A DNA stretch of 43,407 bases, taken from NCBI GenBank assembly GCA_017882325.1, contig JADGPQ010000002.1:1-43407 (forward strand), in the 5' to 3' direction. The translations under genes and the position numbers were made by a program. The DNA comes from Thermoleophilia bacterium (GTDB taxonomy: Bacteria > Actinomycetota > Thermoleophilia > UBA2241). Under the pieces are notes generated by a model. The model was not told the origin of the DNA and ran no database searches. It was given only the letters and a program-made list of their open reading frames with translations. Below, piece by piece: positions 990 to 43,407 of this stretch; positions within the stretch are counted from its first letter, which is position 1, and each line of letters starts with the position of its first letter.

Positions 990-1018
990 CGCAGCAGAAG
1001 GGCAGGTAGCCGACCCGC

Positions 1019-1558
1019 ATGAGCGCTCCGTCTCGTACCCTCGCCACCGACATCCTCGAGGCCACCGGCATCAACCCCGCGACGTGCTATCAGTGCGGCA
1101 AGTGCTCCGCCGGCTGCCCGATGGCGTCCGAGTCCGACCTGCGCCCGCACAACGTGATGCGCCTGGTCGTGCAGGATCGCCGGGAAGCCGCCCTGTCCGA
1201 ACAGTCCATCTGGCTCTGCCTCACCTGCGAGACCTGCTCGGCTCGCTGCCCCAATGCCTGCGACCCGGCCCGTGTCATCGACGCGGTTCGCGAGATGAGC
1301 ATCGAGGCCGAGGTCGCCGACATGCCGCGCAACGTCGCCGCCTTCCATCGCGCTTTTCTTGAGCAGATCCGCACCAACGGCCGGCTGCACGAGATGGGCA
1401 TGGTGATGGAGTACAAGCTGCGCAGCGGCGACCTCATGAAGGACGTCATCAACGCGCCGGGCATGCTCAGCCGCGGGAAGCTGAGCTTCCGCGCGGAGCG
1501 CATCGAGGGCGTCGCCGAGATCAAGCGGATCTTCGAGAAGTGCGGCGTGACCCCGTGA
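1019..1558 (+). CDS. hdrC: Heterodisulfide reductase subunit C-like 4Fe-4S protein
   Basis: Two ferredoxin motifs (CYQCGKCSAGCP and CLTCETCSARCP). First gene of an hdrC-hdrB-hdrA series. Confidence 0.85.
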   Translation: MSAPSRTLATDILEATGINPATCYQCGKCSAGCPMASESDLRPHNVMRLVVQDRREAALSEQSIWLCLTCETCSARCPNACDPARVIDAVREMSIEAEVADMPRNVAAFHRAFLEQIRTNGRLHEMGMVMEYKLRSGDLMKDVINAPGMLSRGKLSFRAERIEGVAEIKRIFEKCGVTP

Positions 1559-2595
1559 CCGAGACTGCCGCGACGTCGCGAGCCGCGATGACCGATGTCG
1601 CCTACTATCCCGGCTGCTCGCTGCACGGCACCTCCCGTGAATTCGACGAGAGCCTCCGCGCCGTGGCCGCCGAGCTGGGCATCGGCCTCACCGAGATCGC
1701 CGACTGGTCATGCTGTGGCGCCAGCAGCGGCCACACCACCGACCACCTGCTCGGCGTAGCGCTGCCGGCGCGCAACCTCGCGCTGGCTGAAGCGCAGGGC
1801 TTCGACACCGTGCTCGCGCCCTGCGCCGCCTGCTACAACCGCCTCTCGGCGGCCCGCCTGGCGATCGCCACCGAGGACGGCCTCGCCGAACAGATGCCCG
1901 ACATCCTCGGCCACCCGTTCGCCAACAGCGTGGACGTGCACAACGCCGTCGAGCTGCTCCGCGACGCGTCCGTGACCATCGAGGAGAAGGTGGCCGCGAC
2001 CCTCGCGCCCAATCCTCTCGAGGGCGTCAAGCTGGCGGCCTACTACGGCTGCCTGCTGGTGCGCCCGTTTGAGGTGTGCGGCTACGACGACCCCGAGCAG
2101 CCCACCTCGATGGACGAGGTCATAGACGCCTGCGGCGCCGACGACGTGGATTGGGACATGAAGGTCGAGTGCTGCGGCGGCGCCTTCAGCGTGAGCCGCA
2201 CCGCGTCGGTGCTGCGGCTTGGGCGCGCCATCATCGACAACGCCCGTTCCCACGGCGCGGAGGCCATCATCGTGGCCTGCCCGCTGTGCCACTCCAACCT
2301 CGACCTCCGTCAGAAGGCCATGGCCCAGCGCGGCGAGGAGCCCATGCCGATCCTGTTCGTCACGCAGATGGTCGGCCTCGCCCTCGGGCTGGCGCCCGTG
2401 GACCTCGGCCTGGGCCGTCACTTCGTCGACACCGAGCCGCTCATCGCGCGCCTTGTGCAGCAGGCGGCGAAGCGCGTCGCGGCAGAGAAGCTCGCCAAAG
2501 AGGAGGCCGCCGCCAAGGCCGCGGCCCGCGCCGAGAAGCAGAAGGTCGGAGTCGCTGCCGGTACCTCCGGCGCCGAAGGCGGTGAGGCTCAGTGA
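1555..2595 (+). CDS. hdrB: Heterodisulfide reductase subunit B-like (CCG-domain) protein
   Basis: CCG-type Cys motifs (DWSCCGAS, KVECCGGAF, ACPLCHSNL). GTG 1555 overlaps the hdrC stop (GTGA), the same coupling seen at other junctions of this operon. The track start 1540 is less likely. Confidence 0.85.
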   Translation: MTETAATSRAAMTDVAYYPGCSLHGTSREFDESLRAVAAELGIGLTEIADWSCCGASSGHTTDHLLGVALPARNLALAEAQGFDTVLAPCAACYNRLSAARLAIATEDGLAEQMPDILGHPFANSVDVHNAVELLRDASVTIEEKVAATLAPNPLEGVKLAAYYGCLLVRPFEVCGYDDPEQPTSMDEVIDACGADDVDWDMKVECCGGAFSVSRTASVLRLGRAIIDNARSHGAEAIIVACPLCHSNLDLRQKAMAQRGEEPMPILFVTQMVGLALGLAPVDLGLGRHFVDTEPLIARLVQQAAKRVAAEKLAKEEAAAKAAARAEKQKVGVAAGTSGAEGGEAQ

Positions 2596-4619
2596 GCCGC
2601 ATCGGCGTCTTCATCTGCCACTGCGGCGAGAACATCGGCCGCACCGTCGACTGCGAGGCGGTCACCGAGGCCCTCAAGGACCACCCGGGCGTCGCCTTCA
2701 CCGAGGACTACAAGTACATGTGCTCCGACCCCGGCCAGCAGCTCGTCAAGAAGGCCATCGAGGACAACGACCTCACCGGCGTGGTCGTGGCCGCCTGCTC
2801 GCCGCACATGCACGAGAAGACCTTCCGCCGCGCCTGCGACCAGGCCGGCCTCAACAAGTACATGTGCGAGATGGCCAACATCCGCGAGCACTGCAGCTGG
2901 ATCCACGAGGACCGCGGCGAGGCCACCGAAAAGGCCGTCGACATCACCCGCACCATCGTCGAGAAGGTCAAGCACAACCAGCCGCTGGAGAGTATCCACA
3001 TCCCCGTCACCAAGCGCGCCCTCGTGATCGGCGGCGGCATCGCCGGCATCCAGGCGGCGCTCGACATCGCGGACGGCGGCCACGAGGTTGTGCTCGTCGA
3101 GAAAGAAGCCTCGATCGGCGGCCACATGAGCCAGCTCAGCGAGACGTTCCCGACGCTGGATTGCTCGCAGTGCATCCTCACGCCACGCATGGTCGAGGCG
3201 TACCAGCACCCCAACATCAAGCTCCACACCTGGAGCGAGGTCGAGAAGGTCGACGGCTACATCGGCAACTTCACCGTGAAGATCCGCAAGAAGGCGCGCT
3301 CGGTGAACGAGGACCTCTGCAACGGCTGCGGCGACTGCCAGGAAGCCTGCCCGGCGAAACGCATCCCCAGCGAGTTCGAGGCCGGGCTCGGCAACCGCAC
3401 GGCGATCTACGTGCCGTTCCCGCAGGCGGTGCCCAACATCCCGGTGCTCGACCGCCAGAACTGCACCCTCTTCAAGGGCCGCCGCAAGGGCCTGGCCAAG
3501 GACGCCTGCGGCAAGTGCAAGGAGGCGTGCCTCAAGGACGCCATCGACTACGACGCCGAGGACACCTTCATCGAGGAGGAGATCGGCGCCATCGTGGTGG
3601 CCACGGGATTCCAGCTGTACAGCATCGGCCGCGAGCAGCCCGAGGGCCTCAAGGGCTACGGCGAGTACGGCTACGGCGAGGTGCCGGACGTCATCGACGG
3701 CCTGCAGTTCGAGCGCCTGGCGTCGGCCTCGGGGCCGACCGCAGGCGCCATCCTCAGGCCGTCCGACGGCAAGGAGCCCAAGACGGTGGTCTTCGTCCAC
3801 TGCGTGGGCTCCCGCGACTCCGAGAAGGGCATATCGTACTGCAGCAAGATCTGCTGCATGTACAACGCCAAGCACGCCATGCTCTACAAGCACAAGGTGC
3901 ACGACGGCCGCGCCGTGGCCTTCTACATGGACATCCGCGCCGCCGGTAAGGGCTACGACGAGTTCAGCCGGCGGGCCATCGAGGAAGACGGCGCCGAGTA
4001 CATCCGCGGGCGCGTCAGCCGCATCTTCCGCGACGGCGACGTCGTGAAGGTGTGGGGTTACGACACGCTGAGCCAGGAGCAGGTGGTGATCGACGCCGAC
4101 ATGGTGGTGCTGGCCACGGCCATGCGACCCCAGGACGGCGTCCGCGAACTCGCGCAGAAGCTCAGCGTGAGCACCGACGAGCACGGCTTCATCAATGAGG
4201 CGCACCCCAAGCTGCGCCCGGTGGAGACGAACACCGCCGGGGTCTTCGTGGCCGGCGCCTGCCAGGCGCCGCGCGACATCCCCGACGCGGTCGCGATGGC
4301 CAGCGCCACCGGCGCCAAAGTGCTGAGCCTGTTCAGCGCCGACGAGCTCGAGCGCGAGCCGGCGGTGGCGATCGTCAACGAGAACACCTGCATCGGCTGC
4401 ATGAACTGCGCCAAGGTGTGTGCCTACGGCGCCATCGAGCAGCGCGAGATCTGCACCGTCGACGGTCACGTCTGCGGCCACGTCGCCTACGTGAACCCCG
4501 GCGTGTGCCAGGGTTGTGGCACGTGCCAGGCGGTCTGCCTCAGCAAGAGCGTCGAGCTGCAGACGTTCACCGACGAGCAGATCTTCAGCGAGATCAACGC
4601 TCTCTGCTACTGGGAGTGA
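2592..4619 (+). CDS. hdrA: Heterodisulfide reductase subunit A-like FAD/Fe-S protein
   Basis: 675 aa. N-terminal FICHCGENI Cys cluster, GGGIAGIQAALD dinucleotide fold, and 4Fe-4S motifs CNGCGDCQEACP, CIGCMNCAKVC and CQGCGTCQAVC. GTG overlaps the hdrB stop. Confidence 0.9.
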   Translation: MSRIGVFICHCGENIGRTVDCEAVTEALKDHPGVAFTEDYKYMCSDPGQQLVKKAIEDNDLTGVVVAACSPHMHEKTFRRACDQAGLNKYMCEMANIREHCSWIHEDRGEATEKAVDITRTIVEKVKHNQPLESIHIPVTKRALVIGGGIAGIQAALDIADGGHEVVLVEKEASIGGHMSQLSETFPTLDCSQCILTPRMVEAYQHPNIKLHTWSEVEKVDGYIGNFTVKIRKKARSVNEDLCNGCGDCQEACPAKRIPSEFEAGLGNRTAIYVPFPQAVPNIPVLDRQNCTLFKGRRKGLAKDACGKCKEACLKDAIDYDAEDTFIEEEIGAIVVATGFQLYSIGREQPEGLKGYGEYGYGEVPDVIDGLQFERLASASGPTAGAILRPSDGKEPKTVVFVHCVGSRDSEKGISYCSKICCMYNAKHAMLYKHKVHDGRAVAFYMDIRAAGKGYDEFSRRAIEEDGAEYIRGRVSRIFRDGDVVKVWGYDTLSQEQVVIDADMVVLATAMRPQDGVRELAQKLSVSTDEHGFINEAHPKLRPVETNTAGVFVAGACQAPRDIPDAVAMASATGAKVLSLFSADELEREPAVAIVNENTCIGCMNCAKVCAYGAIEQREICTVDGHVCGHVAYVNPGVCQGCGTCQAVCLSKSVELQTFTDEQIFSEINALCYWE

Positions 4620-4620
4620 C

Positions 4621-5130
4621 GTGAGCGACGCAGTCGACACGAGCGGCGCGGCTGCCGACGGCTTCGAGCCGCGCATCACCGCCTTCGTCTGCAACTGGTG
4701 CACGTACACCGGCGCCGACCTTGCGGGCACGAGCCGCTTGCACATGGCCAGCAACGTGCGCATCATCCGCCTGCCCTGCACCGGCCGCATCGACCCGCTG
4801 TTCATCGTCAAGTCCTTCGAGCGCGGCGCCGATGGCGTGATCGTCAGCGGCTGCCACCCGGCCGACTGCCACTACACCTCGGGCAACTACCATGCCCGCC
4901 GGCGCTTCGCCGTGTTCCACGACCTCATGGAGTTCGTCGGCGTCGACCCGCGACGCATGACCTTCTCTTGGGTCTCCGCGAGCGAGGGCGCCAAGTGGCG
5001 CGACGTGGTTGACGAAGCCGTAGCCAACGTGCGGGCCCTGGGGCCGTTCGAGGCGTACCGCGCACTGGCGCCGGAGGATGCCGGCGTGGCTGCGCCGGCC
5101 GGCGCGAGGGTCGAAGCCGAGGCCTCATGA
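4621..5130 (+). CDS. mvhD: MvhD/FlxD-like 2Fe-2S electron-transfer protein
   Basis: FVCNWCTYTGADLAG...RLPCTGRIDP...VSGCHPADCHY signature. GTG 4621 lies one nt after the hdrA stop. The track start 4516 lies inside hdrA. Confidence 0.85.
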   Translation: MSDAVDTSGAAADGFEPRITAFVCNWCTYTGADLAGTSRLHMASNVRIIRLPCTGRIDPLFIVKSFERGADGVIVSGCHPADCHYTSGNYHARRRFAVFHDLMEFVGVDPRRMTFSWVSASEGAKWRDVVDEAVANVRALGPFEAYRALAPEDAGVAAPAGARVEAEAS

Positions 5131-6008
5131 GCGAGGTGCGCGAGGTCGCCCGAAAGCTTCTCACCGACGGCACGGTGCGCGTGATCGTCGGCTGGGAGGA
5201 TGCCCGCCGCGGCGCGCGGCCGGTCTTCGTCACCGACCCGGCCGATACGGAACGGCTCATCTTCGACACGCGCTGCGTGCACAATCTCGTCACCTATCTG
5301 AACCCGCGCCGCGACAACGTCGCCGAGCTCGGCAAGATCGGCCTCGTGGTCAAGGGCTGCGACGCCAAGGCGGTCGCGGGCCTGCTGCGTGAGGCGCAGC
5401 TCACGCGCGACGACGTCGTGCTCATCGGCGTCCGCTGTGGCGGCGTGCTGGAGGAAGCGGAGCTTCCCAAGGCCGCGTCACTGAGCCCGGAGAACGTCGC
5501 CCCGCGCTGCTACGGCTGCGACAACCGCGAGCCGGAGCTCGTCGACCACCTGCTCGGCGAGTCGCAGCCCGAACCGCCGCGGCCGGTCATGACCATCGAC
5601 GAGCGCGTCGCCGCGCTCGACGCGCAGCCGCTCGAGGAACGCTGGGCCTTCTGGACCGAGCAGTTCTCCAAGTGTGTGCGCTGCTACGCGTGCCGCCAGG
5701 TGTGCCCGCTGTGCGTCTGCGAGCGGTGCGTGGCCGAGAAGAGCCGGCCACAGTGGATCGAGGCGCCGCCACACCCGCGCGGCAACCTGAGCTGGAACAT
5801 CACCCGTGCCCTGCATCTCGCCGGCCGCTGCGTGGACTGCGGCGAGTGCGAGCGCTTCTGCCCCGTCGGTATCCCGCTCAGCCTCGTGAACCGCAAGCTG
5901 CAGCACATCGTGGCGGAGCGGTACGGCTACACCGTCAGCGATGATCCCGAGAGTCCCGCGCCCATCGGCGACTACCGGCTCGACGACAAGCAGGAGTTCA
6001 TCAAGTGA
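5127..6008 (+). CDS. FlxC-like 4Fe-4S dicluster protein
   Basis: CVRCYACRQVCPLC and CVDCGECERFCP motifs. ATGA overlap with mvhD. The position matches the Fe-S subunits of Flx-Hdr type clusters. Confidence 0.65.
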   Translation: MSEVREVARKLLTDGTVRVIVGWEDARRGARPVFVTDPADTERLIFDTRCVHNLVTYLNPRRDNVAELGKIGLVVKGCDAKAVAGLLREAQLTRDDVVLIGVRCGGVLEEAELPKAASLSPENVAPRCYGCDNREPELVDHLLGESQPEPPRPVMTIDERVAALDAQPLEERWAFWTEQFSKCVRCYACRQVCPLCVCERCVAEKSRPQWIEAPPHPRGNLSWNITRALHLAGRCVDCGECERFCPVGIPLSLVNRKLQHIVAERYGYTVSDDPESPAPIGDYRLDDKQEFIK

Positions 6009-7186
6009 CGGACGCGACGCGCGAGACGTACTTCATCAGCGACGACGATCTGCGCGCGCTGGCCGGGGATCTGCTGAGCGCGGGCACGGAAGTGATCGCG
6101 CCGGTGGCGGTGGACGTCTGCGCCTCGCCGTCGGCGATCGCCTCGTCGGCCTGCCTGCGTCCCGGGGTCGCGCCGGTCGACATCGAGTACCGCGCGCTCG
6201 CCGACGCCGCCGAGCTCGACCTGAGCCGGGGCCTGCCGGTGCTGTCGCTCAAGCAGTACTTCCTGCCCGGACACGAGGCCCTGTGCTGCTGGCGTCAGCA
6301 CGGCACCGAGGTCGAGATCGAAGCGGTGCCCACGACGTTCGCGCCGCGCGTCGTGCTGGCGGCGAAGTCCTGCGACAGCGCTGCCTTGGCCATCGTCGAC
6401 AAGGTCATGAACTGGGACTACCAGGACGAGCTGTGGAACGGCCGCCGCGAGGCCACGACGATCGTCAACCTCGCCTGCCCCGTCGTCGACGAGAGTTGCT
6501 TCTGCACGGCTGTCGGCACGGCGCCAGACGACGTCAAGGGCGCCGACGCTCTGCTCACGCCTGTCGAGGGCGGCTATTTGATGGAGGCGACCACCGACAA
6601 GGGGCGCGTCCTGATGGAGGCCCACGGGGCGCGCTTCAAGGCGGAGACCGACACCCACGGCGCGAAGCACCGCGGCCGCCAGGCCGCGGAGGAACGCGCC
6701 GCCGCCCGCGCCCGCGTCGCCGCCAACCTCGAGATCGACGCCGAGTCGGTGCGCGAGTGGATCGACGCGCACTTCGAGGACCCGCTGCTCGCCGCACTCG
6801 GCGTGCGCTGCAACGGCTGCGGCGCCTGTTCGAGCGTCTGCCCCACCTGCCACTGCTTCGACATCGTCGACGAGGAAGAGGGCATCGGCAAAGGCACCCG
6901 GCGGCGGTGCTGGGACACCTGTCAGGCGCCGACCTTCACGCTGCATGCCAGCGGCCACAATCCGCGCGACGACCAGCACTCGCGCTACCGGCAGCGCATC
7001 AATCACAAGTTCGCCATCTACCCGCTCAAGTTCGGCGAGGTGCTGTGCACGGGGTGCGGCCGCTGCACACGAGCCTGCCACGCCGGCCAGGACCTCGTCG
7101 AGATCCTCCAGGCCATCGACATCGCCGCGCGGCGGCCCGACGCAGCCGCGGCCGCCGTCGCCGGGGCGGAGCCGGCCGGCTCGTGA
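6005..7186 (+). CDS. FlxB / AsrA / HydB-like Fe-S subunit
   Basis: CNGCGACSSVCPTCHCFD and CTGCGRCTRACH motifs, typical of the beta subunits of sulfhydrogenase/anaerobic sulfite reductase-like modules. GTGA overlap upstream. Confidence 0.65.
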   Translation: MTDATRETYFISDDDLRALAGDLLSAGTEVIAPVAVDVCASPSAIASSACLRPGVAPVDIEYRALADAAELDLSRGLPVLSLKQYFLPGHEALCCWRQHGTEVEIEAVPTTFAPRVVLAAKSCDSAALAIVDKVMNWDYQDELWNGRREATTIVNLACPVVDESCFCTAVGTAPDDVKGADALLTPVEGGYLMEATTDKGRVLMEAHGARFKAETDTHGAKHRGRQAAEERAAARARVAANLEIDAESVREWIDAHFEDPLLAALGVRCNGCGACSSVCPTCHCFDIVDEEEGIGKGTRRRCWDTCQAPTFTLHASGHNPRDDQHSRYRQRINHKFAIYPLKFGEVLCTGCGRCTRACHAGQDLVEILQAIDIAARRPDAAAAAVAGAEPAGS

Positions 7187-8013
7187 ACATCTATCAGCCT
7201 CAGCTCGCCCTCGTGACGGCACTCACCGACGAGACGCACGACACGCGCACCCTACGCTTGGAGTTCGAGGATGAGGCCCTGCGCGACTCGTTCGACTTTC
7301 ACGCCGGGCAGTTCGGCGAGTACAGCGTGTTCGGCGCCGGCGAGAGCACCTTCTGCATCGCCAGCGCGCCGACCCGCAAAGGCTTCATCGAGTGCAGCTT
7401 CAAGGCCGTAGGCAAGGTGACGTCCGCGCTCCGCGAAGTGAACGTCGGCGACACCGTGGGCTTTCGCGGCCCGTACGGCAACTGGTTCCCGGTGGACGAA
7501 TGGAAAGGCAAGGACGTGGTCTTCATCGCCGGCGGCATCGGCCTGGCGCCGGTGCGCTGCGTGATCTGGAACGTGCTCGACCGCCGCGAGGAGTTCGGTG
7601 ACGTGACCATCGTGTACGGCGCGCGCTCGGTGGACGACTTGGTGTACAAGCGCGAGCTGGAAGAATGGGCCTCGCGCTCGGACGTCAAGATCGTGACCAC
7701 CGTCGACCCCGGGGGTGAAACGAAGGACTGGACCGGCGAGGTCGGTTACGTCACGCCGGTCGTCGAGGCGACGGCGCCCATGGCGCAGAACGCCGTCGCC
7801 GTGCTCTGCGGACCGCCCATCGTGGTCAAGCTCACGCTGCCCGTGCTCGACAAGCTCGGCTTCGCCGACGAGGCCATCTTCACCACGCTAGAGAACCGCA
7901 TGAAGTGCGGGCTCGGCAAGTGCGGCCGCTGCAACATCGGGCCCGTGTACGTCTGCAAGGACGGGCCCGTCTTCACCGCCGCCCAGCTGAAGGAGCTCCC
8001 GGCGGAGTTCTAG
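7183..8013 (+). CDS. FlxA / PyrK / AsrB-like FAD-NAD(P)H oxidoreductase subunit with C-terminal 2Fe-2S
   Basis: The real start is GTG 7183 (GTGA overlap). The 5941 track start is an alternate-frame artefact over the two upstream genes. Motifs: FIAGGIGLAPV nucleotide fold and CGLGKCGRCNIGPVYVCKDGP cluster. TAG stop. Confidence 0.8.
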   Translation: MNIYQPQLALVTALTDETHDTRTLRLEFEDEALRDSFDFHAGQFGEYSVFGAGESTFCIASAPTRKGFIECSFKAVGKVTSALREVNVGDTVGFRGPYGNWFPVDEWKGKDVVFIAGGIGLAPVRCVIWNVLDRREEFGDVTIVYGARSVDDLVYKRELEEWASRSDVKIVTTVDPGGETKDWTGEVGYVTPVVEATAPMAQNAVAVLCGPPIVVKLTLPVLDKLGFADEAIFTTLENRMKCGLGKCGRCNIGPVYVCKDGPVFTAAQLKELPAEF

Positions 8014-8387
8014 GCGGCGGCTCCTGGTGGAGTTGTGGCGCCGCCCGCGAGCACCTCTTGTGCTCGCCTTAGATTTTTCGCTGCGACCCTGACCTCGCAT
8101 GGGCCGTCCGTGGCAAGGTGTCGCGGGAAGAGGTCGGCGAGACGGCGAAGCCCGGCTCGCCGCACGGCGACCACCTCGGCATCAATGCCGCGCTGCGCGA
8201 GACGAGAGACCGTCGGCAGAGCGTCTTCATACCGATCCACCGTGGCCACGGGAACTGTAGGGGATGCCGGCGGCGTCCAGGGCCTCGCGATGCGCTTCAG
8301 GAGAGCCTCTTGTGACACTTCTCCAGCCGTTCCAGATAGATTGCGCTGCAGCTCGGCCTCATCGGCCTCGGGGAAGCGCTGCCTCAC
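8010..8387 (-). CDS. Hypothetical protein (possibly a start-less remnant)
   Basis: 125-aa ORF from GTG 8387. The same frame stays open up to 8579 and encodes a helical segment (QLYLEALRRLTPEQRLLKAFELTELTRELLG) with no ATG/GTG/TTG. The 3' end overlaps the hdr-flx terminator. Confidence 0.3.
   Translation of the reverse strand: MRQRFPEADEAELQRNLSGTAGEVSQEALLKRIARPWTPPASPTVPVATVDRYEDALPTVSRLAQRGIDAEVVAVRRAGLRRLADLFPRHLATDGPCEVRVAAKNLRRAQEVLAGGATTPPGAAA
8047..8078 (+). terminator. Intrinsic terminator of the hdr-flx operon
   Basis: GCGAGCAC (8047-8054), loop CTCTT, GTGCTCGC (8060-8067), followed by CTTAGATTTTT. It starts 34 nt after the TAG stop. Confidence 0.8.
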
Positions 8388-8695
8388 GCCGACGCCGAGA
8401 AGCTCGCGCGTCAGCTCGGTGAGCTCGAAGGCCTTTAGGAGGCGCTGCTCCGGCGTCAGCCGGCGGAGCGCCTCGAGGTAGAGCTGGTGGTTCGGCCGCG
8501 GCTTCGGGTCCGTCGGGGAAGGATAGCACCGTGAAGGGCTGTGGCCGCTGCCGGGTGCCCGAAGGCGCTGCGCAGGCGTCTACGCACTGCCCCAGAAACC
8601 CCACGGGCTCTTGGCTGGACCCAGGATGGCGTACCATCACTGCAGACGTTGGCCGGACTCGGCCTGGGGGAGGTTGCAGCGTGGAGGACAAGCGG

Positions 8696-9682
8696 ATGGA
8701 GATGACACCGGATGCCGGCGAAAGAACCATGACGACGCATGCGGCAGGCGCAACCCGGGCGCAGGTCGCGGCGGTCGTGGGCGCCCCAGACTTCGTGCTG
8801 CCCTGGCTCGACCGTTTCTACGACGGCGACGCCGTCGAGCTCCTGCTGGCCTTCGCCACGCTGAGCGAAATTGATGACGAGCCGACCGCACTCGACGACG
8901 TCGATCCGGCGCGCCTCGAGCGCGCCGTGCGCCGCGCCGTCCTGGACCGCGACGAGGCCGGCGCGTACGCGCCGGCCTCCTTCCGCGACCGTCTCGAGAT
9001 CTGGGCCATGCTCGAAGGCTGGAAGGACATCCCGTCGGCCCTACACCGGGAGCTCGCCGACTGGGAGGTCGGGAACTACGCGGAGTCGATCCGCGAGGGG
9101 CTCGAAGCCCTGAAGGACGGCCGCTCGGCCGACTCCGATCAGGCCGGCTACACCTATCTGCTGCTTGCTGAGGGCGAGGACGTCATCGCCGCTGAGGAAC
9201 ACGTCTACTTGTGGCCGTGCGACTGCCGCGCCATCGTAGGCCGCTGCCGCAAGCCGGCCAACGTCTGCCTGCGCTTCGAAAACGACCGCGGTCTCGGCTG
9301 GGAGATCTCGAAGGAGCGCGCCGTGGAAACCCTGCGCGCGGCCGACAGAGCCGGCCTCACGCACACCGGCCACCCCAGGGGGAGTGAGCCCGCTCCAGGC
9401 GCCATCTGCAACTGCTGCACAGACTGCTGTTTCCCCCACCTGGCCACGGAGCGACTGGGGACCAGCGACGTGTGGCCGGTGCGTCGCCACGTCGCCGTCA
9501 TCGACGAGGACGCGTGCAGGCCCTGCGGCCGCTGCGCCCGCCGCTGCCCGTTCGCCGCCATCACCGCCGACTCCGTCGGGAGCCCGCGGCTCGAGCCTGC
9601 GGCCTGCCGCGGCTGCGGCCTGTGCTCCACGACCTGCCCCACCGAGGCCATCGCCATGCGGCCTCTCGTCGCTCCGGCTTGA
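8696..9682 (+). CDS. Cys-rich Fe-S protein with C-terminal 2x[4Fe-4S] ferredoxin domain, function unknown
   Basis: ATG 8696 is preceded by GGAGGA 7 nt upstream; the track start 8531 lacks an RBS. Motifs: WPCDCRAIVGRCRKPANVC, ICNCCTDCCFP, CRPCGRCARRCP, CRGCGLCSTTCP. Confidence 0.6.
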   Translation: MEMTPDAGERTMTTHAAGATRAQVAAVVGAPDFVLPWLDRFYDGDAVELLLAFATLSEIDDEPTALDDVDPARLERAVRRAVLDRDEAGAYAPASFRDRLEIWAMLEGWKDIPSALHRELADWEVGNYAESIREGLEALKDGRSADSDQAGYTYLLLAEGEDVIAAEEHVYLWPCDCRAIVGRCRKPANVCLRFENDRGLGWEISKERAVETLRAADRAGLTHTGHPRGSEPAPGAICNCCTDCCFPHLATERLGTSDVWPVRRHVAVIDEDACRPCGRCARRCPFAAITADSVGSPRLEPAACRGCGLCSTTCPTEAIAMRPLVAPA

Positions 9683-9790
9683 GCCGCTCCGCGCTTCAGG
9701 CCGAAGCCCTCGGCGTTCTCACCGGGCCGCGCAGCGCGGATGCGACGATGGGCTCATCGGTCGCGACTGAGCAGTTCCTTGTTCCGCTCG

Positions 9791-11260
9791 TCAATGCACG
9801 CCGAATTCTTCCTCTGCAGACCTGATTATCGACTTGAGTTTCGCCGCTACCTCTGGGGGCAGAGGCTCGGGCTCGTGCGTCTCGAGGATCCTGCGGGCCT
9901 CCACGAGGGCGCGGTCGTAGAGGCTCGTCGACCCGGATGCGGCCCAGTCCTCCCGGACCCTCCGGTCGATGAGCGTCGAACGCGACTGCCCGCGCATGCC
10001 CTTGTAGGTGTCGTCGTGCGAGAGGAAGTCGCTAAACGGACCCACCTCGGCGATGACGTCGACCGAGAGCGTCTCGTCGGTGACCGGGATCCCCGGCACG
10101 CAGAACTTGACCATGCGCGCGAACTCGGCGTCCATGACGAGCTGCGCGTAGTCGATGGTGACGCCCGATTCCAGCATCCCCAGCCCGTAGATCAGGTTGG
10201 CCCCTGCCAACGCCGGCAGCAGGCTGGTGAGCGTCTTCTCGTGACCGGATTGGGCGTCCGCCACTTTGGAGTCGCCCTACGCACCGGCGACCCAGCTGGG
10301 CAGCAGGTAGAAGCGCGCCAGACAGGCGACGCCGGCGCCGATCATCGCGCACTCGGGGCTGCCCACCGAGGCGCTGGCGAAGCGCAAGTCCATGGCGGTC
10401 GTCGACGACCCGTAGATCACGGGCGCGCCCTTCACCGTGAGCTGCGCCAGCGTGATGCCGGCGAGGACTTCCGCGTTGTGCGTCACGAGCGTGCCGGCGA
10501 GACTGACTGGCGAGGAGCCTCCGGCCATCGCCATGGAGAGCACGTTGACCGGCACGCCGGCGCGCACGCCTTCGATGATGATGCGGCAGGCATCGGCGAC
10601 CAGCTTGAGCGGGCTCACCGGGCAGGTCAGGAACGAGACGATCGGCCGCTTGCGGAGCTGGTCGCGGCCGCCGACGATAGCGGCCGCCATGTCGATCATC
10701 TTGCGGGCACAGAAGCCCGAGAGAGGGCCGATGGTGGCGTGCTTCGTCGTGTTCGAGAAGATCGCCTCAGCGTTGTGCAGGGCGGCGGTGTCGGGCGGCA
10801 CGTCGTGCGCCCCGAGCGGCCGCTCGACGACATCGATCTCGGGGAGCGCGTCGATGATCCTCGTGCAGTCGGCGACGTCCTGCTTGCGCGACTCGTGCAA
10901 CTCGCCGGTGTACGGATCGACGACCTGGATGCCCTCGCCGAAGTTGGTGAATCCGACGCGGCCGTCTTCGAGCACGACGTCGTTGGCGGGGTCGCGTCCG
11001 CACATGACCACCTTGGGCGGAGCGGAGCGGATGGCGTCTTCGACGACATGCGCAGGCAGGCACGCCACCCGGCGCGCGCGATCGATGTCCGCCCCGGCAT
11101 CCGCGAAGATCTGAAGGGCCTCGTCGTCTTCGACGAAGACGCCGGTCTGCGACAGCACTTCGAGCGTCGCAAGATGGATCTCGTTGAGCTCGTCGTCGGT
11201 GAACACTTCGAGCCTGAAACCGCCGCTCTTGCGCGCGCCCGCGCGCGGGTTCCGTCTCAT
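9791..11260 (-). CDS. mttB: Trimethylamine:corrinoid methyltransferase MttB, pyrrolysine type (one in-frame UAG)
   Basis: Track ORFs 10277..11920 (from the internal ATG 11260 with a GGAGG RBS) and 9791..10264 share one frame and are separated only by TAG 10277-10279 plus 4 sense codons. The joined 489 aa is colinear with the MttB family and with the two uninterrupted paralogues in this window. ATGA overlap with the mtbB stop. Confidence 0.85.
10277..10279 (-). other. In-frame UAG, predicted pyrrolysine codon of mttB (codon 328)
   Basis: Plus strand reads cta. Context is ...YLLPSWVAGA-UAG-GDSKVADAQSGHEKT... The paralogues read LPNWGYAGTTDAQVIDAQAG and LPVRAGAAVTDAHVPDAQAA across the same column. 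Confidence 0.8.
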
Positions 11261-12663
11261 TTCGCGCCTCCGGTCGGCGTCGTGCGCTCCTTGAACTTCT
11301 CGACGCAGTTGATGGGCACGTCCAGCACGCGGGCGATGTTGAACTTCGCCTCGATCTGGTTCGCCTGCCAGGGCTGGCTGATGGCGTAGCTGTGGATGCG
11401 GCCGAAGCCGTGTTCGTTGCGGACGTCGGTCATGACCACCGGGTCCGAGAGGTCGAAGGGGGTCACGCCGAGCTTGCCGGCCACGTAGTCCTTTGCTTCC
11501 TTGAGACGCATGCCGCGGGTCATTTGCATTCGAGCCACCAGGTCTCCGGCTGCTCGCATACCGCCCATGCCCGCTGCCTGCGCGTGAGCGTTGTGCATCC
11601 CGTGAGGGTCGCCCGAGCCCACCTACAAGCCATCGACGTGCAGGAGGTCGACGCACGACTTGGCCGCCCGGCTCACGGCGTCGGCCGGCGCGTGCACGAA
11701 CATCGGCACGGCGCCGACGCCCATGCCGGCGTTCATGTGCACGGGAATGGTCGCGACCTCCATGCACGGCTTCACCAGGGCGATCGCACGGGCGATGTTC
11801 CAAGCGCAGCTCTTGCCGGTGTTGACGTTGACGACCGGTCCGAACATGGTGGCGCCGGCCTGCTGCGCAAGGAGCAATTGCTCCTTGGGCCACAGGCCGG
11901 CGAGGCGCACGCCCTCCCACTCGAGCTGACCGTGCATGCCGAGCACGAACTCGCCGGCCATGCCCAGCTGGACGCCGAGATCGGGGTACTTCTCACGGAT
12001 GATCGCGGTCGCCCTCAGGGCGGCGAGGAACTCCGGGTCGCCGGAGGCGCCGGTGGTGTCCCAGTCGATCGCATCGGCGCCGGCCTCGTACTGCGAATCG
12101 GCGAGGCGGACCATGTCGAGGACGGCCATCTCGACGGCTTCTTCTTGAGCGGCCCGCGCCTCGGCGATCTTGCCGAGCGGCAGGAGCTCGTTCCAGTTGT
12201 CGCAGGGGCCGTCCGGCTTCGAGTAAAGCCCGAGATTGGGCATCACGCCGTACTGCAGCGGCGCGACCGTGCAGAGCAGGGCGTCGTGCATGTACTGCGC
12301 CTCGTAGGAGAGGATCGTGCGCACGACCTTGAGTGAGTAGTCGCCGACGCACAGTTCCAGCAGGTCGGCGCCCATCCACTGCTCGTAGGACTGCAGGTCC
12401 TGGATGCGCGAGGCGTGAGTCTTCATGCCGGTGCCGTCGCAACTCAGGATGATCTCGTCGCCGACGTCGACGCCGGTGAAGCGCGCCGCCGAAGCGTAGA
12501 TGTCGAGCAGATGATCCAGCTCTACGTCGGTGAGAGGCGGCACTTTGGCTCTCTTGACTGCCGCCTCCGACCCCGCCACGAGATCCGCTCTGATCTCGCT
12601 GCGCGTCAGGCGCGCGAAGGTGCCGTCCCCCATGCGGGTCGGCACCCGGGCTTCGTTCGTCAT
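11257..12663 (-). CDS. mtbB: Dimethylamine:corrinoid methyltransferase MtbB, pyrrolysine type (one in-frame UAG)
   Basis: Track ORFs 11623..12723 and 11257..11622 are contiguous in one frame, separated only by TAG 11623-11625. The joined product is 468 aa from ATG 12663 (RBS GAGGAGGG). Family blocks seen: RMGDG, YGVMPNLGLY, DTTGASGD, GMAGEFVLGMHG, LAGLWP, GMRAAGDLVARM. Confidence 0.85.
11623..11625 (-). other. In-frame UAG, predicted pyrrolysine codon of mtbB (codon 347)
   Basis: Plus strand reads cta. Context is ...LLHVDGL-UAG-VGSGDPHGMHNAH... This matches, from memory, the GVDGI-Pyl-IGVGDP block of Methanosarcina MtbB. Confidence 0.8.
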
Positions 12664-12730
12664 CCTGTCCCTCCTCGTTCCACAGGCTCGTCTCCTCAGT
12701 GCGTCGTCCGACGATCTCGTCACTGGCCCG

Positions 12731-38004: not shown

Positions 38005-39384
38005 TCAGACCAGGCAGAGCTTGTCAAGCTGGCGGCGGACGAGAGGATCGAGATCGTCCGGAGGTGTGAAGGCTTCCAGGCGGCGCGCCACTTCGCCGGC
38101 CGCCGCCCGGCGAGCGTCCACGCCACCCCCGTCCGTCCATTTCTCGAGTGCGTCGCGCGCCAGGAAGGTGGACCGGTCATGGTCGCGGGCGTGTGCCCGG
38201 GTATGACCGGCCGACAGGTAGCTGCCGGCGGGACCGATCTCCGCGATGACGTCCTCGGCGAGGTCCTCGCGATTAGTCCGGACCGGCCGTTCGAGCGCAC
38301 TCTGTCCGGCGAGCATCTCGTCGTCGAGCACGAACTTCTCGAGAGAGACGACGTTGAAAGCGCTCAGGATGCCGGCGGCTTGGAAGACGAAGTCGGCGCC
38401 GGCGCGGACCGCGCTGGCAAGGCCCCGAAGTGATTCAGCGGCCGCCTGTGCGTCGGGCACGTGCGCGTCGGTGACGGCGGCGCCTGCGCGCACCGGCAAG
38501 CCGCAGTGATGTGCGAGTCGCACGGATGCCACAGCCATGCGCGCGAACTCCGGCGTGCCGAAGAGCGCGGCGCCGGTGCGCAACGACGCCATCGTCGAGA
38601 GGCCGCCGTAGATGAAGGGGGAGCCCGCGCCAGCGGCCTGGGATAGCACCAACGCGGCCAGCACCTCCGCGTGCTGTACTACGAGGACGCCGGCCGGCGT
38701 AGCAGGGCCAGTGGTGCCGCCCATCACGCAGGAGGTGATGCAGGTGGGCTGGCCGAGACGCGCCCAGCGGACGAGGAGCCGCGCCGTCTCCGAGGTGATC
38801 TGCAGCGGCGAGCTGGTGTTCAGGATGATCAGCCCGCGCGGGACCTCGTTCCACGCCGCCCCGAAGAGGATCTCGTGAGCGGCCACGGCCACATCGAGGT
38901 CGTCGTCAGTCGTCGCGACCCACTCGCTCGCCTTGTCGCTGAGCACCAGCCGTGCGTGAGTTCCACGCAGCGTCCGCCGCTCCTCCGGGAGGTCGAGCAG
39001 CTCGACGCTGTCGCCGTGGTACTCGATCGAGGACGAGACGTGCCCCAGCTTGATCGTGGCCTCGAGGTCGCCCAGGGTCCCCGGCCGCGCACGGTCGCCA
39101 TCGAGCACATAGGCGGGACCCGAGCATGAGCCGAAGACGGCGTGGCCGTCCCCGAAGCGCACGTCGCGGGCTGGCGATCGGCCGATGAGGGTGAAGGACG
39201 AGGGCGCGACGGCAAGCGCCGCCCGCACCGCGCCCTCCCCGATGAACACCCGCCGACCGTCGGCGCGTGCGCCGTGGGCGCGCAGAAGTGCGACGGCGGC
39301 GGTGTCGTGCACAAGCACGCCGGTGCGCTCGAGCACCCGCAGAGCCGCCTCGTGGACGGCCACGACATCGGCCTGCTCGATCAC
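38005..39384 (-). CDS. MttB-superfamily methyltransferase without pyrrolysine (quaternary-amine type), paralogue 2
   Basis: 459 aa from a GTG start. Colinear with MttB (VHEAALRVLERTGV, ILNTSSPL, MGGTTGPATPAG). It reads GAAVTDAHVPDAQAA through the Pyl column without interruption. Confidence 0.8.
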   Translation of the reverse strand: MIEQADVVAVHEAALRVLERTGVLVHDTAAVALLRAHGARADGRRVFIGEGAVRAALAVAPSSFTLIGRSPARDVRFGDGHAVFGSCSGPAYVLDGDRARPGTLGDLEATIKLGHVSSSIEYHGDSVELLDLPEERRTLRGTHARLVLSDKASEWVATTDDDLDVAVAAHEILFGAAWNEVPRGLIILNTSSPLQITSETARLLVRWARLGQPTCITSCVMGGTTGPATPAGVLVVQHAEVLAALVLSQAAGAGSPFIYGGLSTMASLRTGAALFGTPEFARMAVASVRLAHHCGLPVRAGAAVTDAHVPDAQAAAESLRGLASAVRAGADFVFQAAGILSAFNVVSLEKFVLDDEMLAGQSALERPVRTNREDLAEDVIAEIGPAGSYLSAGHTRAHARDHDRSTFLARDALEKWTDGGGVDARRAAAGEVARRLEAFTPPDDLDPLVRRQLDKLCLV

Positions 39385-39387
39385 CGC

Positions 39388-40842
39388 CTACGCGCCTGGC
39401 ACGAAGCCGGCCACGAGCGCGTCGATGCGCGTCGCGACATCCGCGGCGAGCGGCTGCGGCTGGTGGGTCTCGAGGAGCCTCAGGGCCTTGCGGCGGGCTC
39501 TCTCACGGAGGTCAAGCCCGCCCTCTTCCTGCCAGCGCACGTAACCCTGACGGTTGATGATCGTCGGCCGCCACTGCGCCGTGCGCACGTGCTTGGCGGT
39601 GTGCTTGCTGCTCAGGAAGTCGCCGCCCGGGCCGACCTGGCGGATCGTGTCGACGGCCAGAGTCTCGGGCGTGACCTCGACGCCGGCGAAGATGCGGCGG
39701 TTCAGCGACAGATACTCGTCCATGATGACGATCAGCTCGAGCGACGCCGTCATGCCATAGTCGATGTAGCCGATGTCGTGGTTGAGGTTGGAGCCGGCGG
39801 CGAGGCTCAAGAACGTGAGCTCGGCCGCCTCCATACCCGCCTGCGCGTCGATCACCTGCGCATCGGTCGTGCCCGCGTACCCCCAGTTCGGCAGGTCCAG
39901 CCAGCGCGCCATCTCCACGGCGCAGACGTAGCCCATCAGATACTCGGGCGCGTTGTAGGAAGACTGAGACGTCGCCATGTCGAGAACCCCCGGGCCGATC
40001 CCGAAGAGGAATGGCGCGCCCGGCTTGCGCAGCTGGTGGATGACGAGGCCGAACAGCGACTCGGCGACGCCCTGCGCCGTGTGGCCGGCCACCGTGATCG
40101 GCGCCGTGCCGCCCGCCAGCGGCGCCGGCGAGTAGATGGCCGGGATGCCCCAGTCGGCGCAGAAGAGCAGCTTCTCGATGCTCTCCACGGGGTGCGAGAG
40201 CGGGCTCACGGGCTCCAGGTACATGGTGAAGTACGGCTTGGCGCGCAGCTCCTCGGCGCCGCCGCGCAGCTCGCAGGCGATCTCCCACAACACCTTGAGA
40301 TCGCCGGCGTTCTCGGAGGTCATCACCATCGGCTTGGTGGTGCTCGTGACCATGGCGCGGAAGCTCTCGAGGTACGAGCGGTGCGGCGCGATGTCGTTGG
40401 GGTGGGCACACGACATGGCGAAGTCGATATTGGGCAGCGCGTCGCAGAGCCGTGCCGCCCGCGAGACGTCGGACAGGGCGCTGGGCCGGTGCTCGCCCGT
40501 CTCGAGGTCGTAAGTACTCATGAGGTCGGATCCGGTGCCGAAGTAGCTGTTGCGCCCGCCGAGGGACATCGCCGGCGCGCCGGTGCGGTCGTAGACCTCG
40601 ATCATGTTCGGGGCCGTGGCCCGCGCCCGCTTCACGAGCGTGCGCGGGATGCGCACGAGGTCGGCGTCGGTCACAGTGCAGCCCGCGTCACCCAGCAGCT
40701 CTCGGGCTTCCTCGTGGAGCACGCGCATGCCTATGCCGGCGATGATATCCAGGGCGGCATCGTAGATCGCCTGCTTGTCGGCTCCGCTGAGATAGGTCAG
40801 CCGGCCTGTGCCGGGCCGAGGCGGCGGATCATGATCGGGCAC
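39388..40842 (-). CDS. MttB-superfamily methyltransferase without pyrrolysine (quaternary-amine type), paralogue 1
   Basis: GTG 40842 has GGAAGGAG 7 nt upstream, giving 484 aa. The track start 41859 is an antisense artefact over iclR. It reads YAGTTDAQVIDAQAG across the Pyl column. TAG stop. Confidence 0.8.
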   Translation of the reverse strand: MPDHDPPPRPGTGRLTYLSGADKQAIYDAALDIIAGIGMRVLHEEARELLGDAGCTVTDADLVRIPRTLVKRARATAPNMIEVYDRTGAPAMSLGGRNSYFGTGSDLMSTYDLETGEHRPSALSDVSRAARLCDALPNIDFAMSCAHPNDIAPHRSYLESFRAMVTSTTKPMVMTSENAGDLKVLWEIACELRGGAEELRAKPYFTMYLEPVSPLSHPVESIEKLLFCADWGIPAIYSPAPLAGGTAPITVAGHTAQGVAESLFGLVIHQLRKPGAPFLFGIGPGVLDMATSQSSYNAPEYLMGYVCAVEMARWLDLPNWGYAGTTDAQVIDAQAGMEAAELTFLSLAAGSNLNHDIGYIDYGMTASLELIVIMDEYLSLNRRIFAGVEVTPETLAVDTIRQVGPGGDFLSSKHTAKHVRTAQWRPTIINRQGYVRWQEEGGLDLRERARRKALRLLETHQPQPLAADVATRIDALVAGFVPGA

Positions 40843-41886: not shown

Positions 41887-42047
41887 CTCCGCGCCGGTGA
41901 TTTGCGTCCGTAATCCCGGAAATCCGGCGAGCTTGCTGTGAAACCAGCGCGGGTTCCCCTAGAGTCCTGCCTGCCAGACGCGTCGTTTCGGCAGTTGGCG
42001 TACGCCCCGGCCCCGCCGGCGCTCGATTCATCTTGGAAGGAGACGTC

Positions 42048-43407
42048 GTGACCATCATCCTGGACGGCGGGTCGCTGACCGTCGAGAAGCTCGTGCGCAT
42101 CGCCCGCGAGGGCGAGAAGGTCGAGCTCGACCCGGCGGCCGTGGAACGCATCCGGGTCTGTCGCGCCATGCTCGAAGACAAGATCAAGGCGCGCGAGATC
42201 ATGTACGGCACCAACACCGGCATCGGCGAGTTCTCCGAGATGGTGCTCGACGACGCGCAGGTCACGCAGTTCCAGCGCTACCTCGTGTACAACCACTCGG
42301 CCGGCTTCGGCCAGCCCGCGTCCCCCGAGGTCGTGCGCGCCGCCATGGCGGGGCGCATCAACGTGCACGCGCACGGCAACTCGGGCAATCGGCCCGAGAT
42401 CACGTTGGCCCTGGTCGAGATGCTCAACCGCGGCGTGACGCCGGTGGTCTGCGAAAAGGGCTCCGTGGGCGCCTCCGGCGACCTCGCCCCCATGGCTCAG
42501 CTCGCCCTCCTCCTGATGGGCGAGGGCGAGGCCTTCTACGAAGGCGAACGCCTACCCGGTAAGGTGGCCATGGAGCGCGCCGGCATCCCCGTCCCGGGGC
42601 TGGAAGCGCGCGACGGCCTCGCCGCGATCAACGGCTCAAACGTCCTCACCGCCATGAGCGCGCTACTCTGCTACGACGCCGACCGCTGGCTGCGCCAGGC
42701 CGAGATCGCCTGCGCCATGTCGCTCGAAGCACTGCTCGCCAACCTCAAGCCGTACAACGCCAAGCTGCACGAGCTGCGCGGCTTCGCCGGAGCCATCCGC
42801 AGCGCCGCCTCCATCAAGAAGTGCATCGAGAACAGCGACCTGGCGACCGGCAAGATCAAGACCAAAGTGCAGGACGCTTACTCCATGCGCTCCTCGCCGC
42901 AGGTGATCGGCGCCGCGCACGACGCGCTGGCGTGGGCGAAGTCCCAGGTCGAGATCGAGCTGAATGGCGTCGGCGACAACCCGATCTTCGTGCCCGAAGA
43001 CAAGCTCACGCTTACCGGCGCCAACTTCCAGGGCACGCCGGTCAGCCTGCCGATGGAGATTGTCGGGCAAGCGATCACCATGGTCAGCGTGCTCTCCGAG
43101 CGCCGTCTCAACCGCCTCGAGAACCCGGCGCTCAGTCAGGGACTGCCCGATTTCCTCACGCCGAACCCCGGCTTCTACTCCGGGCTCATGCTGAGCCAGT
43201 ACGCCGCCGACACGCTTATCACCGAGCAGCGGATCCTGGCGGCTCCGGCCTCCACGATGAGCATCCCTGCGGCGGCCGACCAGGAAGACTTCGTCTCGAT
43301 GGGCATGAACACGGCCCTCAAGAACCGCCAGATCCTCGAGAACGCCTACGGCGTGCTGGGCATCGAGTTCATGGGGGCGGCGCAGGCCCTCGACTTCCGC
43401 GAGTTCA
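42048..43407 (+). CDS. HAL/PAL/TAL-family MIO ammonia-lyase or aminomutase, second paralogue (3' end outside window)
   Basis: Not in the supplied ORF track. GTG 42048 lies 5 nt after GGAAGGAG. The frame is open for 453 codons to the window end: VTIILDGGSLTVEKLVRIAREG..., YGTNTGIGEFSE, YLVYNHSAGFG, GSVGASGDLAPMAQL (Ala-Ser-Gly), DQEDFVSMG. Confidence 0.85.
   Translation, partial: MTIILDGGSLTVEKLVRIAREGEKVELDPAAVERIRVCRAMLEDKIKAREIMYGTNTGIGEFSEMVLDDAQVTQFQRYLVYNHSAGFGQPASPEVVRAAMAGRINVHAHGNSGNRPEITLALVEMLNRGVTPVVCEKGSVGASGDLAPMAQLALLLMGEGEAFYEGERLPGKVAMERAGIPVPGLEARDGLAAINGSNVLTAMSALLCYDADRWLRQAEIACAMSLEALLANLKPYNAKLHELRGFAGAIRSAASIKKCIENSDLATGKIKTKVQDAYSMRSSPQVIGAAHDALAWAKSQVEIELNGVGDNPIFVPEDKLTLTGANFQGTPVSLPMEIVGQAITMVSVLSERRLNRLENPALSQGLPDFLTPNPGFYSGLMLSQYAADTLITEQRILAAPASTMSIPAAADQEDFVSMGMNTALKNRQILENAYGVLGIEFMGAAQALDFREF

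Follow-up and report, generated by a model that had tools for sequence, protein, structure and literature searches.

The amber codon in mttB

The window analyzed here is a 43,407-nucleotide stretch of contig JADGPQ010000002.1 from a Thermoleophilia bacterium (assembly GCA_017882325.1), with a G+C content of ~69%. Its minus strand carries mttB, which specifies a trimethylamine (TMA) methyltransferase and is divided by one internal UAG codon. Judged from its sequence, positions 9791-11260 very probably hold a single intact mttB in which the UAG, at codon 328, encodes a predicted pyrrolysine (Pyl). Real genes in the window were distinguished from spurious open reading frames (ORFs) by third-position GC content and Pfam matches. 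The features that define mttB are the following.

9791..11260, minus strand: complete mttB, 489 codons including the UAG, then the TGA stop at 9791-9793
10277..10279, minus strand: in-frame UAG of mttB, codon 328, the predicted pyrrolysine codon
10280..11260, minus strand: N-terminal part of mttB, 327 codons, Pfam MTTB profile positions 30-337
9794..10276, minus strand: C-terminal part of mttB, 161 codons after the UAG with the frame kept, Pfam MTTB profile positions 341-499
11267..11271, minus strand: Shine-Dalgarno sequence GGAGG, spaced 6 nt from the mttB ATG, read directly from the sequence

Translated on the minus strand from 11920 to 9791, the frame reads FYLLPSWVAGA, a stop, and then GDSKVADAQSGHEKT. 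That stop, TAG at 10277-10279, is the only internal one between 11260 and the terminal TGA. Two features support ATG 11260 as the start of mttB: the GGAGG lying 6 nt 5' of it and its overlap with the stop codon of the upstream gene, mtbB, as ATGA (11257-11260). An earlier note on this DNA, made from the letters alone, had read the frame as beginning at this ATG, stopping at TAG 10277-10279 and, once joined, giving a protein of 489 residues. Our translation and the Shine-Dalgarno sequence agree with the first two points, and counting 327 codons, the TAG and 161 further codons yields the same length.

The Pfam MTTB family (PF06253) matches both parts of the gene. Because the N-terminal match runs to profile position 337 and the C-terminal match resumes at 341, the TAG falls within a three-column gap of one continuous domain. 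The 157-residue ORF at 9791..10264 corresponds to this C-terminal part when counting begins at an internal GTG. The 327-residue N-terminal part likewise appears as a gene-caller product on a JGI contig (L004). The metagenome contigs found to be identical to the window are short.

The UAG occupies the pyrrolysine column of the MttB family

Among PDB sequences, the best match to the joined mttB product is the MttB of Methanosarcina barkeri (7XCL), which aligns over its full length with 412 bits (E = 2.5e-122). In this alignment the X at codon 328 of the query is paired with the X that stands for Pyl334 in 7XCL. A Smith-Waterman alignment gives 46.5% identity over 482 residues and again pairs codon 328 with residue 334. 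Around this position the two proteins have the motif LPS[WY]VAG[AS]-X-[GS]D[SA]KV.D.Q[SA]GHEKT in common, which in the window reads LPSWVAGA-X-GDSKVADAQSGHEKT, with X at the UAG.

Profile scores point the same way. The joined product reaches 732.3 bits against the NCBIfam equivalog TIGR02369 ('trimeth_pyl'; cutoff 525), and its score to the non-Pyl glycine betaine methyltransferase MtgB (2QNE/9YCE) is 236 bits, compared with 412 to Pyl-containing MttB. The window gene also departs from the non-Pyl MttB superfamily at the Pyl column, where it carries a stop instead of a sense codon. These results establish where the UAG lies and to which family the gene belongs. The earlier note had placed the UAG in the Pyl column of the family and had proposed alignment with characterized MttB proteins as a check; the exact pairing with Pyl334, together with the lower score of MtgB, bears out that placement.

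The window contains two further members of the superfamily.

38005..39384, minus strand: non-Pyl paralogue A, Pfam MTTB E = 1.8e-101, Val in the Pyl column
39388..~40830, minus strand: non-Pyl paralogue B, Pfam MTTB E = 3.4e-83, Thr in the Pyl column, start approximate, ending in TAG

A MAFFT alignment shows both paralogues running uninterrupted across the UAG site, with V and T there, as the earlier note had described. Their TIGR02369 scores of 252 bits (A) and 365 bits (B) lie below the cutoff. The characterized non-Pyl enzymes MtgB, MtcB, MtpB and MtyB belong to the same fold family as the window mttB. They differ from it in that a sense codon occupies the Pyl column and their substrates are quaternary amines, and paralogues A and B fall on their side, as do relatives of the Leu or Trp type.

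The two paralogues adjoin each other at a TAG of their own. At 39384-39390 on the minus strand the sequence reads TAG-GCG-GTG, so that paralogue A starts two codons after the stop of paralogue B and in the same frame. Amber read-through at this junction would fuse two MttB-family proteins. In relatives the position and frame of the stop are kept, and the codon is TAG in three and TAA in one (L097). Since the stop varies between TAG and TAA, we take it as an ordinary terminator rather than a conserved Pyl site, and we reject a Pyl read-through fusion of B and A as a conserved feature. The junction instead serves as an internal control: an ordinary stop varies here, unlike the invariant TAG of mttB codon 328.

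Not every close relative of the window gene has a stop in the Pyl column. Seven full-length relatives from outside the window (P0035, P0040, P0047, P0058, P0079, P0085 and P0119) are 53-61% identical to the window MttB and, at the protein level, have Leu, Trp, Ala, Val or Ser at that column. They are nearer to the window protein than is the M. barkeri Pyl-MttB (46.5%), and they still pass TIGR02369, with scores of 639-734 against the cutoff of 525. Such relatives may reflect recent loss or replacement of Pyl. Because they pass the model, the fold evidently tolerates canonical residues at the Pyl column. This observation favors an alternative in which the UAG is read through with a canonical residue, by a conventional amber suppressor tRNA or by near-cognate decoding, to give a non-Pyl MttB. 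We return to this alternative with the decoding machinery, which bears on it directly.

The codon and the frame behind it are conserved

To describe the variation at this codon we used two samples: the best 120 homologue clusters of the protein and a set of ten orthologous DNA sequences, consisting of the window and nine other loci (L004-L007 and L173-L177). In the protein survey, 82 of the best 120 clusters are short products with 72-97% identity to the N-terminal part. All but one of these (81/82) terminate exactly at the mttB UAG codon, ending in WVAG[A/G/Q]. At the DNA level, codon 328 is TAG in 10/10 sequences, and the flanking codons differ synonymously (synonymous divergence, dS, of about 0.5-0.7). 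Beyond the TAG, the complete, non-frameshifted orthologues keep the frame open as far as a stop at codon 490.

The ratio of nonsynonymous to synonymous substitution (dN/dS) was estimated for each part of the gene. For codons 1-327 it is 0.10-0.14 among the window, L005 and L007, and for the part after the TAG it is 0.25-0.35 between the window and these two orthologues. These values indicate purifying selection on the C-terminal part as well as on the N-terminal part. Conservation of the TAG and selection on the downstream frame are therefore established. Locus L006 was left out of the selection argument because its C-terminal part is frameshifted.

These data bear on the simplest alternative, that mttB is a decaying pseudogene in which the UAG arose as a chance nonsense mutation. 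Something like decay can be seen in the divergent L006 (ERZ25039481 contig_16590, 7153-11500; 72% identical), where mtbB lies in three pieces and frameshifts interrupt the C-terminal part of mttB. These lesions may equally be assembly errors: the neighboring ABC genes are fragmented as well, from which we conclude that they probably reflect indel errors in long reads rather than decay. In the window gene there is a single stop, it is a TAG, it sits at the Pyl column, and it is the same codon in all 10 orthologous sequences, which excludes a chance stop. With purifying selection on both parts and the same pattern in the neighboring mtbB, the pseudogene reading is effectively refuted by conservation.

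Conservation also bears on a second alternative, in which translation really ends at the UAG and the 327-residue polypeptide assembles, without pyrrolysine, with a separately initiated one of ~157 residues that begins at GTG 10264. The 157-residue ORF that is annotated separately in all relatives begins at this GTG, four codons past the TAG, and TAG does act as a stop elsewhere in the window. No Shine-Dalgarno sequence precedes GTG 10264, however, unlike the GGAGG before the real start, and the intervening GDSK codons belong to the conserved family motif. A split enzyme would also tolerate other stop codons or shifted frames at the break, yet all 10 sequences have the same TAG and the same frame. 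Finally, the stop falls at precisely the catalytic Pyl column. We consider a two-polypeptide enzyme to be very improbable.

A second amber codon lies in the adjacent mtbB

The gene immediately upstream of mttB shows the same organization.

11257..12723, minus strand: mtbB, dimethylamine methyltransferase, interrupted by one in-frame UAG (11623-11625), Pfam Dimeth_Pyl (PF09505)

The TAG of mtbB splits the Dimeth_Pyl profile between positions 353 and 355. Scored separately rather than as a joined protein, the two parts reach 280.7 and 100.1 bits against TIGR02368, a sum of 380.8 compared with a cutoff of 369.1. The TAG is kept in 4/4 orthologues. The earlier note had pointed to a second recoded gene beside mttB, and it holds that a TAG interrupts mtbB at its own Pyl position in each of the four orthologues. 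The true start of mtbB is probably ATG 12663 rather than GTG 12723, which gives an N-terminal part of 346 residues as in L007 and L174. From the ATGA overlap, mtbB is predicted to be translationally coupled to the downstream mttB. In one ortholog locus, L174, the genes stand in the classical operon order mtbB-corrinoid-corrinoid-mttB.

The clade of the window has a pyrrolysine cassette

Insertion of Pyl would require a dedicated tRNA and synthetase. We scanned species-representative genomes for PylS with sequences from M. mazei and Desulfitobacterium hafniense that were validated against the PDB (D. hafniense PylSc: 3DSQ/2ZNI). The scan returned 578 loci, two of which are actinobacterial with a GC content like that of the window (0.67-0.68): L054, from the uncultured Actinomycetes bacterium MFD05942.bin.2.346, and L086, from Actinomycetota bacterium palsa_647. 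Both encode PylSc (TIGR02367 312-314, cutoff 178) and PylSn (TIGR03912 119-123, cutoff 51). They also hold PylD, scored in L086 (TIGR03911 196, cutoff 150). A corrinoid protein adjoins PylSc in each and scores 180 (L086) and 223 (L054) against the pyl_corrinoid / MtbC-like model, for which the cutoff is 215. ARAGORN identified a tRNA-Pyl(CUA) in L086 and in four further loci, L088-L091; it found no tRNA in L054.

The actinobacterial PylSc proteins are 55-57% identical to that of D. hafniense. They have more than 2800 relatives, and wherever NCBI gives a name it is Thermoleophilia bacterium or Actinobacteria bacterium, as it also is in the MttB clade. Loci L088-L094 have one conserved context, in which genes for ArsR, OsmC, UppP and an amidase are followed by pylSc, a corrinoid protein gene, a radical-SAM gene and pylSn, and further on by pylT, pylD, pylC and pylB. 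Here pylC (ATP-grasp) and pylB (radical-SAM) were assigned by weak precomputed Pfam matches and by position, not by the PylB and PylC TIGR models. The radical-SAM gene between the corrinoid gene and pylSn is an extra member of the cassette. No mttB or mtbB lies within 10 kb of the cassette, whose surroundings are non-methylotrophic. The corrinoid protein gene varies in location among the relatives, being found between mtbB and mttB (L174), after mttB (L006) or beside pylSc.

The two systems occur together in one metagenome assembly. ERZ25039489 contains both the cassette with PylSc P0141 and locus L007, whose mttB is 91% identical to that of the window and whose surroundings are partly syntenic with it (AsnC, panB, mtbB-mttB and Flx/Hdr). 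The genome-wide search for pyl genes that the earlier note had suggested was answered at the level of the clade and of the assembly that holds L007, in both of which the cassette is present. That the clade has a pyl cassette is established, and we infer that this genome has one as well.

With the cassette in view, read-through with a canonical residue can be weighed. It is favored by the sense-residue relatives described above, which are 53-61% identical and pass TIGR02369, and by the lack of pyl genes in the window. Against it, the window contains no tRNA of any kind, and the clade owns a dedicated tRNA-Pyl(CUA), PylS and PylBCD cassette. If a canonical residue sufficed, moreover, a sense codon would be expected to displace a costly stop; instead the TAG is fixed across the clade. 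We regard canonical read-through as highly unlikely.

Observations that weigh against pyrrolysine insertion

Several observations count against the insertion of Pyl in mttB. The locus is known from DNA alone, and Pyl insertion is a prediction. In the 43-kb window we did not find pylT, pylS, pylB, pylC or pylD, nor did we find a corrinoid protein, an MtbA-type methyltransferase or a RamA-type activase. No MttB orthologue could be linked to a pyl cassette at the level of contig or genome, and three further PylSc contigs (P0251, P0253 and P0255) come from other samples.

Stop-codon usage is a further difficulty. Across 35 genes of the window, TGA ends 28, TAG seven and TAA none, which makes TAG an ordinary stop for 20% of them. 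Because UAG ends 7/35 genes, it is not globally reassigned; its decoding would be ambiguous and would compete with termination, which is also the case in other bacteria that use Pyl. If tRNA-Pyl is expressed, about 20% of window genes would be at risk of a C-terminal extension.

The two amber codons also coincide with matches to Rfam PYLIS models, each above the gathering score and each beginning exactly at its TAG. The match in mttB is as follows.

10180..10279, minus strand: Rfam PYLIS_3 (RF02510) match, 100 nt from the UAG, 70.8 bits (gathering 38), E = 1.2e-13, model positions 1-100

In mtbB, a PYLIS_2 match of 73.5 bits covers 11526-11625. As support for Pyl insertion these matches are weaker than their scores. 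The models hold few base pairs, several of which are mismatched here, so that the matches mostly reflect sequence conservation. The minimum free energy of the fold of the PYLIS_3 region has a z-score of -1.69, and 13/200 shuffled sequences fold equally well. With models that are nearly structure-free, mismatched pairs and this z-score, we do not claim PYLIS as a functional RNA element, and we read the matches as conserved coding context rather than proven structure.

A model for MttB synthesis in the clade

The proposed mechanism takes its decoding steps from relatives in the clade. Pyrrolysine would be made from lysine by PylB, PylC and PylD, and an amber-suppressor tRNA-Pyl(CUA) would be charged with it by a split synthetase, PylSc plus PylSn; the genes for these products would sit elsewhere in the genome. 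At both amber codons, UAG 328 in mttB and the one in mtbB, release factor would then face competition from the charged tRNA-Pyl. Through the ATGA stop/start overlap, mttB would be co-translated with the upstream gene for a Pyl-type MtbB. Decoding in this way would yield a trimethylamine:corrinoid Co-methyltransferase of 489 residues in which Pyl is the catalytic residue. Together, MttB and MtbB may demethylate TMA and dimethylamine (DMA), transferring the methyl groups to a cognate corrinoid protein.

The closest characterized system is M. barkeri MttB (7XCL/7XCM/7XCN), which matches the window protein in its PF06253 and TIGR02369 membership, in full-length alignment and in the homology of UAG 328 to Pyl334. 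The setting is different. Instead of a methanogen, the host here is a bacterium of high GC content (about 69%); the gene is without an adjacent mttC or mttP; and a stop/start overlap joins it in one operon with mtbB. The pyrrolysyl-tRNA synthetase (PylRS) of the clade consists of separate PylSc and PylSn proteins, an arrangement found in other bacteria too, and the acceptor of the methyl group would probably be of the folate type and not coenzyme M.

Pyl-type MttB belongs to textbook knowledge, and bacterial Pyl users with a split PylS are well known, among them D. hafniense, Acetohalobium arabaticum and Bilophila wadsworthia. These bacteria have split PylSc/PylSn and a pylBCD-pylT cassette, use UAG also as an ordinary stop and confine Pyl to methylamine methyltransferases. 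The clade of the window resembles users of the D. hafniense type in its split PylSc/PylSn and in keeping UAG as a stop. It differs in phylum and in the housekeeping-like context of its cassette (ArsR-OsmC-UppP-amidase), where only a corrinoid protein is nearby.

Pyrrolysine has been linked to this phylum before. Ellenbogen et al. 2023 described Actinobacteriota metagenome-assembled genomes (MAGs) from Stordalen Mire that express amber-truncated mttB and mtbB (PMC10805028). The phylum label, the two genes and the truncation at an amber codon are the same as in the window, and palsa_647, the PylS-bearing MAG that supplied L086, comes from the Stordalen Mire MAG series. In that study Pyl was deduced from truncation only, and the locus studied here, the Pyl334 alignment, the clade cassette and the invariance of the TAG are not part of it (PMC10805028). 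Guo et al. 2022 report PylRS in two Actinobacteria (PMC9630628). We conclude that the locus is a new, well-supported instance of a known gene type, in a lineage whose use of Pyl has so far been noted in passing.

The practical consequence is one of annotation. Gene callers split the enzyme into products of 327 and 157 residues in every database relative. Because standard callers cut the enzyme in this way, methylamine use by abundant soil and peat actinobacteria is likely to be under-annotated. Correct joining reveals a candidate bacterial sink for TMA and DMA, one that would rival methylotrophic methanogens for methane precursors; such competition is the ecological argument put forward for Stordalen Mire (PMC10805028). 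The locus leaves the understanding of how pyrrolysine works unchanged. It adds a well-supported high-GC bacterial case of natural code expansion, and the PylSc/PylSn/tRNA-Pyl set of the clade may be of interest to genetic-code-expansion engineers.

Other genes in the window

Three further features surround the methyltransferase genes.

1010-8013, plus strand: HdrC/HdrB/HdrA-MvhD-Flx-like iron-sulfur (Fe-S)/flavoprotein cluster, beside mtbB-mttB, syntenic in L007 (11887-20150)
8531-9682, plus strand: 383-residue Fe-S protein, in which only a C-terminal 2x[4Fe-4S] domain is recognized, also beside mtbB-mttB in L007
19539-31652, minus strand, and 41901-43406, plus strand: histidine-utilization-like block with HutH, HutU and a second gene of the HAL family, truncated where the window ends

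The first of these invites a broader and distinctly tentative proposal. A widespread Thermoleophilia-like clade of soil and peat Actinomycetota might carry out Pyl-dependent demethylation of TMA and DMA with methyltransferases that are unlinked from the pyl cassette and the corrinoid protein, that are syntenic with an HdrABC-MvhD/Flx-type cluster and that operate against a background of ~20% UAG stops. We think this proposal, taken as a whole, is unlikely to hold. If it were true, the Hdr/Flx-linked pathway would be a new means of energy coupling in the methylamine oxidation of non-methanogens, and amber read-through across the proteome would have to be either regulated or tolerated in this high-GC phylum.

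The 383-residue Fe-S protein was considered as a RamA-type corrinoid activase. Recognition of its C-terminal 2x[4Fe-4S] domain only leaves that assignment unsupported.

We also considered whether a HAL-family lyase in the window might be an ergothionase that releases TMA for MttB. This candidate was rejected, as both HAL-like proteins keep the Ala-Ser-Gly of the 4-methylideneimidazole-5-one (MIO) group. The first HAL-like protein passes the HutH model (667 > 539), and the urocanase of the window passes HutU (949 > 375) and fails the thiourocanate hydratase model (694 < 930). The histidine-utilization-like block is interspersed with two ornithine-cyclodeaminase-family genes, an enolase-superfamily gene and a succinyl-CoA ligase, along with a 2-oxoacid:ferredoxin oxidoreductase and a xanthine-dehydrogenase-type molybdenum enzyme.

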